The notes beneath the pieces are model-generated. The model was not told the origin of the DNA. It was given only the letters and a program-made list of their open reading frames with translations, and did no database searches. A stretch of DNA of 64,000 nucleotides. Source: Parcubacteria group bacterium. GTDB lineage: Bacteria; Patescibacteriota; Minisyncoccia; Moranbacterales; UBA2206. This document shows, piece after piece, positions 11,684 to 12,214 of this stretch. Position 1 is the stretch's first letter. Every line of letters starts with the position of its first letter. The translations under genes and the position numbers were made by a program. The stretch covers positions 35,654 through 99,653 of the forward strand of contig JBAZYF010000001.1 of NCBI GenBank assembly GCA_041659505.1. The letters run 5' to 3'.

Positions 11684-12214
11684 CTACTTTTTATTAGCTT
11701 CCATTATTTCCAAAATCTTAAATAGATGACAAATTATCGTTTTGGGACTTGGCGGATCGCCGGGAATTTGAAAATCGACTGGAATCACCTTGTCTACTCC
11801 ATCCAAGACCGCATAGGAACCCTTGAAAATTCCTCCGGAAATCGCGTCATCCCCCACCGCCACAACTATTTTTGGATCAGGCGTGGCCTCATATGTTTTC
11901 ACCAGCGCTTCTCGCATATTACGCGACACTGCTCCCGTTACCATCAGCATATCAGCGTGCCGAGGAGAGGCCACAAAGTGAATTCCAAATCTTTCTACAT
12001 CATAGTAGCAATTACTCAGCGCGGTAAGTTCCTGCTCGCAAGCGTTAGTTGATCCGGCGTCCACCTCGCGAATCGCCAGCGAACCGCCAAATATTTTCTT
12101 GATCTTTTTTTCCAATCTTTTTCCCACAATTTCCAACTCTTCATTGCAACCCAAAGCTTCGGTGGAATGCACCGTTTTGGGAGTAGCAAAAATTTTAGAA
12201 TAAAACTTGATCAT
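11684..12214 (-). CDS. HycG/HyfI/NuoB-like hydrogenase small subunit lacking three of the four [4Fe-4S] ligand cysteines
   Basis: Aligns to HycG: VDAGSTNACE in place of VDCGGCNGCE, GDDAISGG in place of GACGNSGG, and IPGDPP in place of IPGCPP. The SPRHADMLMVTGAVSRNMR and PDPKIVVAVG framework is conserved. Confidence 0.75.
   Translation of the reverse strand: MIKFYSKIFATPKTVHSTEALGCNEELEIVGKRLEKKIKKIFGGSLAIREVDAGSTNACEQELTALSNCYYDVERFGIHFVASPRHADMLMVTGAVSRNMREALVKTYEATPDPKIVVAVGDDAISGGIFKGSYAVLDGVDKVIPVDFQIPGDPPSPKTIICHLFKILEIMEANKK

Follow-up and report, generated by a model that had tools for sequence, protein, structure and literature searches.

Aspartates at the former [4Fe-4S] ligand positions of the NuoB/HycG-like small subunit in a Parcubacteria Ehr cassette that has no recognisable redox-cofactor site

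The name Ehr reportedly originates from Geobacter sulfurreducens, in which the subunits are designated EhrA-D, L, and S, and the class is said to have been surveyed by Marreiros et al. in 2013. The published Ehr complexes are composed of two antiporter-like subunits, a NuoH-like and a HyfE-like membrane subunit, a NuoCD-type large subunit devoid of the cysteines of the nickel-iron (NiFe) site, and a NuoB-type small subunit; their function has been stated to be unknown (PMC10284858, PMC7304191) and, in the Candidate Phyla Radiation (CPR), the Ehr large subunits form a single clade from which the metal-binding cysteines are missing (Jaffe et al. 2020; PMC7304191). A cassette with the same composition is found in a stretch of 64,000 nucleotides, hereafter the window, of a Parcubacteria group bacterium (GenBank assembly GCA_041659505.1, contig JBAZYF010000001.1, positions 35,654 to 99,653), and its first gene, located on the minus strand at 11684..12214, encodes the EhrS small subunit (NuoB/HycG/MbhJ-like) that is the subject of this report. 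The Ehr class and its CPR clade are already known, and the cassette is tentatively placed in this clade from the names of the source organisms; what the present analysis adds is that conserved aspartates occupy the last cofactor site and that no recognisable redox-cofactor site is left in the cassette. The Ehr literature found, which does not include Coppi 2005 and Marreiros 2013, deals with ligand loss in the large subunit only and makes no mention of the loss of the small-subunit ligands or of their replacement by Asp.

Other described systems resemble this cassette in some respects and differ in others. Ehr complexes that retain clusters are represented by the Firmicutes type (loci L029 and L030), in which a four-Cys small subunit is fused to a 2x[4Fe-4S] domain, a NuoB-NuoI fusion previously described also for Margulisbacteria, and by the four-Cys small subunits of Candidatus Azambacteria (loci L026 and L027). 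Among the solved structures, the closest is HycG (7z0s_G) and, in agreement with a Hyf-type operon, the membrane subunits of the cassette score as HyfB, HyfC, HyfE, and HyfF; in contrast to the query, HycG has four cysteines and about 90 more C-terminal residues, and it works with HycF, which carries two [4Fe-4S] clusters, and with a large subunit of the NiFe type. MbhJ (6cfw_J) shares 41% identity, the predicted fold, and the minimal size, but it binds the proximal [4Fe-4S] cluster that passes electrons to the NiFe site, whereas the query has Thr, Asp, and Asp at three of the ligands. The complex I subunit known as NuoB, Nqo6, PSST, or NDUFS7 is similar in its fold, in the motifs SPRxxD, GGxxx, and PGxPP and, by homology, in its position where the NuoD- and NuoH-type subunits meet; the ligands of its cluster N2, CC...C...C, are instead replaced by A58-C59...D123...D153, and NuoE, NuoF, NuoG, and NuoI are absent from the cassette. 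The MBS complex (6u8y; PMC7684303) is likewise a descendant of group 4 hydrogenases without the NiFe site, but it has kept three [4Fe-4S] clusters, the proximal one being catalytic, whereas the query has no cluster site.

The small-subunit gene is an intact open reading frame (ORF) with an ATG start and a product of 176 residues. The protein matches the Pfam profile PF01058 (Oxidored_q6) with E=1.8e-25 and 89.6 bits against a cutoff of 27, just exceeds the cutoff of the NCBIfam NuoB subfamily model NF005012 (121.1 against 116), and misses that of TIGR01957 nuoB_fam (110.5 against 142.7). Its top match among solved structures is E. coli HycG (7z0s_G, E=7e-32), followed by P. furiosus MbhJ (6cfw_J, E=2.8e-30), and the PSST/NuoB/NdhK chains of complex I rank after both. 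The Pfam, HycG, and MbhJ matches bear out the NuoB/HycG-like nature proposed in the initial annotation, whose implied Ehr context is confirmed in turn by the profiles of the other subunits and by the NiFe-less large subunit. The AlphaFold2 model has an overall pLDDT of 81.7 and of about 90 in the core, with MbhJ 6cfw_J as the top Foldseek hit (rmsd 2.0 Å, TM 0.90); the flavodoxin-like NuoB/MbhJ fold is thus predicted to be retained, a prediction that is silent on cofactors. Residues 31–158 of HycG (255 residues) align with residues 38–166 of the query, so that the surplus of about 90 residues in HycG is C-terminal and the N-terminus of the query is not shortened, contrary to the trimmed N-terminal extension first described; moreover, MbhJ counts 167 residues and 176 is therefore a normal minimal size. 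An identical protein (P0001) is on record in a metagenome-assembled genome (MAG) of the Parcubacteria group, on a contig of 656 kb. In the databases these proteins are labelled as ‘Ni,Fe-hydrogenase III small subunit’, ‘NADH-quinone oxidoreductase subunit B family protein’, or ‘mbhJ’.

The ligand positions were assigned from the printed structure-match alignments together with a local multiple alignment. In these alignments, T56-N57-A58-C59-E60 stands opposite the hydrogenase C-N-G-C-E, G121-D122-D123-A-I-S-G-G opposite G-A-C-x-x-x-G-G, and P151-G152-D153-P-P opposite P-G-C-P-P; the corresponding codons on the minus strand are located at 12038..12049 for T56-N57-A58-C59, the former CxxC (hydrogenase) or CC (complex I) motif, at 11846..11851 for D122-D123, and at 11756..11758 for D153. 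According to the hydrogenase convention for the proximal [4Fe-4S] cluster, Cys1 is T56, Cys2 is C59, the sole cysteine kept, Cys3 is D123, and Cys4 is D153, while in the tandem CC convention of complex I the first Cys corresponds to A58 and the second to C59. The claim that one of the four proximal-cluster cysteines is retained is therefore correct, C59 being this residue, and so is the number of replaced ligands, but their description as Ala, Thr, and Asp mixes the two conventions. The additional acidic neighbour D122 is also present in 24 of 95 four-Cys relatives; at position 153 all 95 have Cys. A standard [4Fe-4S] cluster cannot be bound by this small subunit.

The residues that took the place of the ligands are strongly conserved. 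Among the 120 closest representatives of clusters at 90% identity, which are 72–100% identical to the query, D123 and D153 are invariant (120/120 each), and C59 is found in 118, D122 in 115, A58 in 106, and T56 in 100 sequences, the remainder having Ser or Asp at position 56; the other cysteines, C23, C69, and C162, are variable. In 22 distinct genes of related loci, D123 is encoded by GAC (11) or GAT (10), D153 by GAT (12) or GAC (10), and C59 by TGC (14) or TGT (6). This turnover of GAC and GAT at fixed amino acids indicates that synonymous sites have changed while the residues were kept under purifying selection, and drift from Cys to Asp is an unlikely route because GAY codons are two nucleotide changes away from TGY. 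The former cluster-binding loops (residues 51–63, 82–94, 117–128, and 150–157) are nearly invariant as well. In comparison with four-Cys relatives, the Asp-type clade has gained D138 and has lost R44 and the Arg or His at position 156; the ligand pocket is a conserved polar and acidic one, made up of T56, C59, D122, D123, and D153 together with the clade-specific D138.

The loss of the defining cofactor ligands could also be the mark of a decaying remnant without a function of its own, but this explanation is scarcely credible: synonymous change has saturated the codons of the replaced positions while the residues have stayed invariant, and the reading frame is unbroken in all loci. Furthermore, the small subunit is the most conserved of the cassette across loci L001–L025, which span several candidate phyla, with an identity of 65–84% compared with 46–71% for the HyfB-like, 62–77% for the NuoH-like, 38–62% for the HyfE-like, 52–71% for the HyfF-like, and 55–73% for the large subunit. 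The replacing aspartates are under purifying selection, and decay is contradicted by this conservation.

Those of the loci L001–L025 that are long enough to cover the cassette share the signature T/S/D-A-C-D-D-D, a NiFe-less large subunit, and the six-gene order, the last of which is also found in L026 and L027. Their sources are mostly Patescibacteria, including Magasanikbacteria, Kerfeldbacteria, Paceibacterota, and others. One Asp-type cassette, with a small subunit 72% identical to the query, lies at 9001-16200 of L020 (OZ245791.1), which derives from the closed 3.08 Mb chromosome of a Victivallales MAG, and other close loci bear the non-CPR bin labels Scalindua, Bdellovibrionales, and Syntrophaceae. 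These non-CPR cassettes point to horizontal transfer or, for the fragmentary ones, to binning errors.

When relatives are grouped at 50% identity, the closest small subunits are for the most part of the canonical four-Cys kind. In the two Candidatus Azambacteria MAGs (L026 and L027) the gene order is identical and the large subunit is NiFe-less (H-S-D-T-H-S-G), while the small subunit, near 9001-9516, has all four Fe-S cysteines (C-A-C...S-C...C); the Azambacteria type has therefore kept the cluster cysteines without a NiFe site, and the loss of the NiFe site and the loss of the cluster are separable steps. Actinobacterial relatives (P0301–P0420), about 40% identical to the query, have no Cys at the four positions, which read D-E-D-S in 95 of 120 sequences, and show the motif P-G-[DSN]-P-P-S-P as well as Asp at the Cys3 position. 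P0301, from an actinomycete, has no cysteine in the whole protein and is devoid of a ferredoxin-like domain; its locus (L037), the one actinobacterial locus examined, has a different gene order. In P0314–P0420 the NuoB domain, itself cluster-less, lies behind an N-terminal ferredoxin-like domain whose cysteines number exactly four (C...CxxCxxC), an odd pairing. The D-E-D-S signature is also shown by P0353, a protein of a Mycobacteriales MAG found in a search started from an actinomycete relative; the Rv0082-Rv0087 operon of M. tuberculosis presumably has the gene order of the cassette, the literature found on it is silent on ligands, and no claim is made here on Rv0082.

Acidic cluster-less small subunits occur in CPR bacteria, in a closed Victivallales chromosome, in Actinobacteria, and in Chloroflexi. 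The Asp at the Cys3 position is invariant in 64 CPR-type and actinobacterial cluster-less sequences, and in most cluster-less lineages two or more of the four positions carry a carboxylate (TCDD, DEDS, DADN, DVDD, DVES, and SEGD), with a few representatives having one or none (TCGN, SAES, and DCAA). In L012 and L025, in which the cassette is kept, and in the SEGD and NEGD lineages, position 59 has Glu instead of Cys; where this is so, position 123 is often Gly. P0121, a metagenomic fragment of 134 residues with 72% identity, has D-N-C-C at positions 56–59 and D-D at 122–123 and is too short to be judged. A single origin of the cluster-less small subunits, suggested by a neighbour-joining tree built on all columns, is not upheld when the ligand columns are masked, the wide clade then having a bootstrap of 1%; under the same masking the close group (TCDD, SEGD, and DVES) is recovered at 60%, and the cluster may have been lost once or several times.

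The large subunit, a HycE-like NuoC-NuoD fusion of 524 residues (4772..6346, minus strand; HycE 7z0s_E, E=1.3e-74), has lost its metal site as well. In the alignment the former RxCGxCxxxH motif has become R223-V-S-G-D-T-S-F-T-H232 (codons at 5651..5680, minus), and the former DPCxxC motif, aligned to ‘LDPCYSCTD’ of HycE, has become F515-N-L-S-Y-S-G-N-D523 (4778..4804, minus), so that the four NiFe Cys positions are occupied by S225, T228, S518, and G521; the quinone residues of complex I, H38 and Y87 in T. thermophilus Nqo4, correspond to I177 and G226. No ferredoxin-type CxxCxxCxxxC motif is present in any frame of the window or on the cassette strand of L001–L025; L017 and L024 each contain one motif-bearing ORF on the opposite strand that overlaps the cassette and is taken as a shadow ORF. 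A ferredoxin-like 2x[4Fe-4S] partner of the HycF, MbhN, or NuoI type was not found in the operon. Nothing in the sequence of the complex is thus recognisable as a site that would bind NiFe, Fe-S, flavin, or quinone.

These observations bear on the possibility, raised in the initial annotation, that a residual or different cluster is present, in which case C59 and the aspartates would hold an atypical Fe-S cluster, or a redox metal of the mononuclear kind, and the complex would still be a redox enzyme. Single Asp ligands to [4Fe-4S] clusters do exist, as in the ferredoxin of P. furiosus, C59 is kept in nearly all of the closest representatives, and the four-Cys ferredoxin-like domain of actinobacterial relatives is in line with such an activity. 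On the other hand, we know of no stable [4Fe-4S] site formed by one Cys and three oxygen ligands, C59 itself is Glu in L012 and L025, and P0301 is entirely free of Cys; in addition, a residual cluster would have neither donor nor acceptor, since no electron path is offered by a window without ferredoxin motifs and by a large subunit without NiFe ligands or quinone residues. The proposal is formally tenable but very unlikely.

An alternative source of redox drive would be a partner with genes of its own, such as a formate dehydrogenase, delivering electrons into the large-subunit pocket, with the small subunit being purely structural. In its favour, a complex of formate dehydrogenase and Ehr has been hypothesised in Margulisbacteria and Saganbacteria (PMC6349859), and the Ehr subunits of Geobacter are more abundant on formate (PMC7894505). 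However, the Ehr types linked to formate dehydrogenase have a NuoB-NuoI fusion with clusters, which the Asp-type clade does not have, no relay cofactor lies between an outside donor and the buried pocket, and the pocket shows no Cys, His, or Tyr chemistry like that by which acceptor sites are known to work. Nor is there a conserved neighbour gene across loci: in the flanks of 21 loci no accessory or partner gene recurs, and only shadow ORFs of the cassette do. Such a partner is accordingly given very little probability. As the genes beside the cassette vary from locus to locus and none of their families recurs, the cassette is self-contained.

The membrane arm, in contrast to the redox sites, has kept its ion-transfer residues. 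It is encoded on the minus strand by the genes of a HyfB/NuoL-like antiporter-type subunit of 682 residues (9582..11630; NCBIfam NF005086 hydrogenase 4 subunit B, 697.7 bits, above cutoff), a HyfC/HycD/NuoH-like subunit of 308 residues (8649..9575; Pfam PF00146, E=1.2e-47), a HyfE-like membrane subunit of 219 residues (7985..8644; NCBIfam NF008556, E=1.5e-15, below cutoff), whose homologues show a weak Oxidored_q2 match, and a HyfF/NuoM/N-like antiporter-type subunit of 481 residues (6535..7980; Pfam PF00361, E=2.1e-53; aligned to MbhH). Together with the large subunit lacking the NiFe cysteines, these antiporter-like, NuoH-like, and HyfE-like subunits identify the cassette as an Ehr complex. 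In the HyfB-like subunit E147, K229, K307, H350, H354, K358, and E413 are invariant in 18 loci and, in the HyfF-like one, E134, K221, K300, H335, and K339 are invariant, with E394 in 17 of 19; the canonical Glu of transmembrane helix 5 (TM5), Lys of TM7, Lys of TM8, His/Lys of TM11, and Glu of TM12 are found in both antiporter-like subunits. E130, E138, E189, E203, E209, and E214 of the NuoH-like subunit and K70 and E161 of the HyfE-like subunit are also invariant. On these residues, the membrane arm appears fully functional.

Charged residues are also invariant in the former NiFe pocket of the large subunit, namely D227, D271, D278, R309, D487, and K513, the positions of which are occupied in true hydrogenases by I, W/L, E, Y/S, T, and A/V, respectively. 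This charged set is common to the Asp-type Ehr and to the four-Cys Azambacteria type, which suggests a conserved, H2-independent function of the large-subunit pocket. When the large subunit was searched for a compensating basic residue, K217 was the only one specific to the Asp-type clade.

Taken together, the preferred reading, to which a probability of roughly 60% is assigned, is that the six-subunit Ehr complex, having no recognisable redox-cofactor site, would be ion-translocating, and that its small subunit would be a structural and coupling component with a carboxylate pocket. The complex would translocate H+ or Na+ without being driven by electron transfer, working either in the manner of an Mrp secondary antiporter or as an ion device that is gated or has some other drive, and the small subunit may control the entry of the membrane arm where the large and the NuoH-like subunits meet. 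The [Fe4S4(Cys)4] centre is anionic, with a net charge of -2 or -3; two or three carboxylates and a thiol in place of this anionic cluster may preserve the packing and the electrostatics of the pocket, acting through a network of hydrogen bonds and salt bridges or holding a proton or a hard cation.

By analogy, the Mrp-type antiporters (PMC7419157, PMC9568556) are the most likely working analogue of the complex, as they are multi-subunit translocators free of redox cofactors with MrpA/MrpD-type subunits and the same set of Lys and Glu residues. Nevertheless, the cassette is not a member of the Mrp family: Mrp has MrpB, E, F, and G and is devoid of NuoH-, NuoB-, and NuoD-type subunits, and of the MrpA-G set only homologues of the MrpA/D type and of the NuoK/HyfE type are present here.

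Several points weigh against this redox-free, ion-translocating reading. The pocket is strongly negative, the more so after the gain of D138 and the loss of R44 and of the Arg or His at position 156, and a counter-charge is therefore needed; the candidates are K217 of the large subunit and a bound cation, such as a metal ion, or a proton. Besides, a plain antiporter needs no peripheral subunits, yet these are the best conserved, so that a specific role of the peripheral pocket is likely. Finally, the sequence, on which the putative transport role rests, does not tell a non-redox metal site from a hydrogen-bond network.

The same evidence leaves some room for a more specific proposal, in which the acidic pocket formed by D122, D123, D153, C59, and T56 would bind a non-redox cation (Mg2+, Ca2+, Na+, or Zn2+) or a proton, for instance as a pH sensor; this is a tentative possibility that agrees with all the data, and equally tentative is its second element, that conformational coupling to the membrane arm would be set off or gated by the occupancy of the site and no longer by reduction of a cluster. 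It would account for the counter-charge needed after the gain of D123, D138, and D153 and the loss of R44 and R/H156, for the invariance of D123 across distant lineages, for the position of the small subunit as the most conserved of the cassette, and for the replacement of C59 by Glu with position 123 often Gly, a pattern suggestive of an exchange by which that space continues to hold a carboxylate. However, the four positions differ among the cluster-less lineages (TCDD, DEDS, DADN, DVES, and SEGD), which is against a fixed coordination sphere, and K217 of the large subunit could provide the counter-charge instead of a metal. Slightly less likely again is that this pocket is a working site for a proton or hard-cation ligand that drives or gates the long-range coupling powered by redox chemistry in complex I and membrane-bound hydrogenases, which would make of the complex a naturally redox-independent machine of the complex I type.

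As for the genetic context, the six genes of the cassette are co-directional and closely packed, with the small subunit first and the large subunit last. A terminator-like hairpin follows the large-subunit gene at 4678..4702 on the minus strand (a stem of 10 pairs followed by a T run, a consensus match only) and is likely the end of the operon. A sigma-70-like promoter match precedes the small-subunit gene and falls within the end of atpC, at 12460..12488 on the minus strand (TTGACA-17-TATGCT, 10/12); it is weak, because such matches are not clearly enriched over shuffles. The leader of 286 nt gave no Rfam match at E<=1 that could indicate a riboswitch and, through it, the ion transported. Beyond the hairpin, which separates it from the cassette, an ORF of 209 residues (4034-4663, minus strand) was considered as a seventh subunit and rejected, since it matches neither Pfam nor NCBIfam and none of 84 loci carries a homologue; it is rich in Cys and His (NHCPDGD, NFCPGLF, and FPCGMAKKHKH).

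Immediately upstream of the cassette lies a complete F-type ATP synthase operon (12501-21286, minus strand), with the genes, named by reading the translations without a profile search, in the order of a 98-residue ORF in the atpI position, a, c, b, delta, alpha, gamma, beta, and epsilon. In the c subunit (19671-19883) no Ser or Thr follows the Glu; a Ser/Thr in this position is what we take to be the mark of Na+-binding c-rings, as in the motif of I. tartaricus, and the ATP synthase is for this reason probably coupled to H+. A functional tie between the two operons was discarded, since the neighbours of the cassette in L001–L004 and in other loci are unrelated.

For complex I and its hydrogenase relatives, the superfamily to which these proteins belong, the central question is how the chemistry at the junction of the NuoB-, NuoD-, and NuoH-type subunits moves ions more than 100 Å away. 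The cassette is a natural member of this superfamily in which the junction and the whole ion-transfer arm are under strong selection, no recognisable redox-cofactor site is left, and invariant aspartates stand in the place of the last iron-sulfur cluster; with six genes and a self-contained organisation, it represents a tractable system for the role of the junction without electrons. The finding bears on the membrane potential and the ion balance of ultra-small CPR bacteria that do not have respiratory chains. Even if the complex were only a structural relic on an Mrp-like antiporter, annotation would still profit from the result: to list these genes among the hydrogenases, NADH dehydrogenases, or Fe-S proteins would be wrong, and the names they carry in the databases would mislead the metabolic reconstruction of CPR bacteria.

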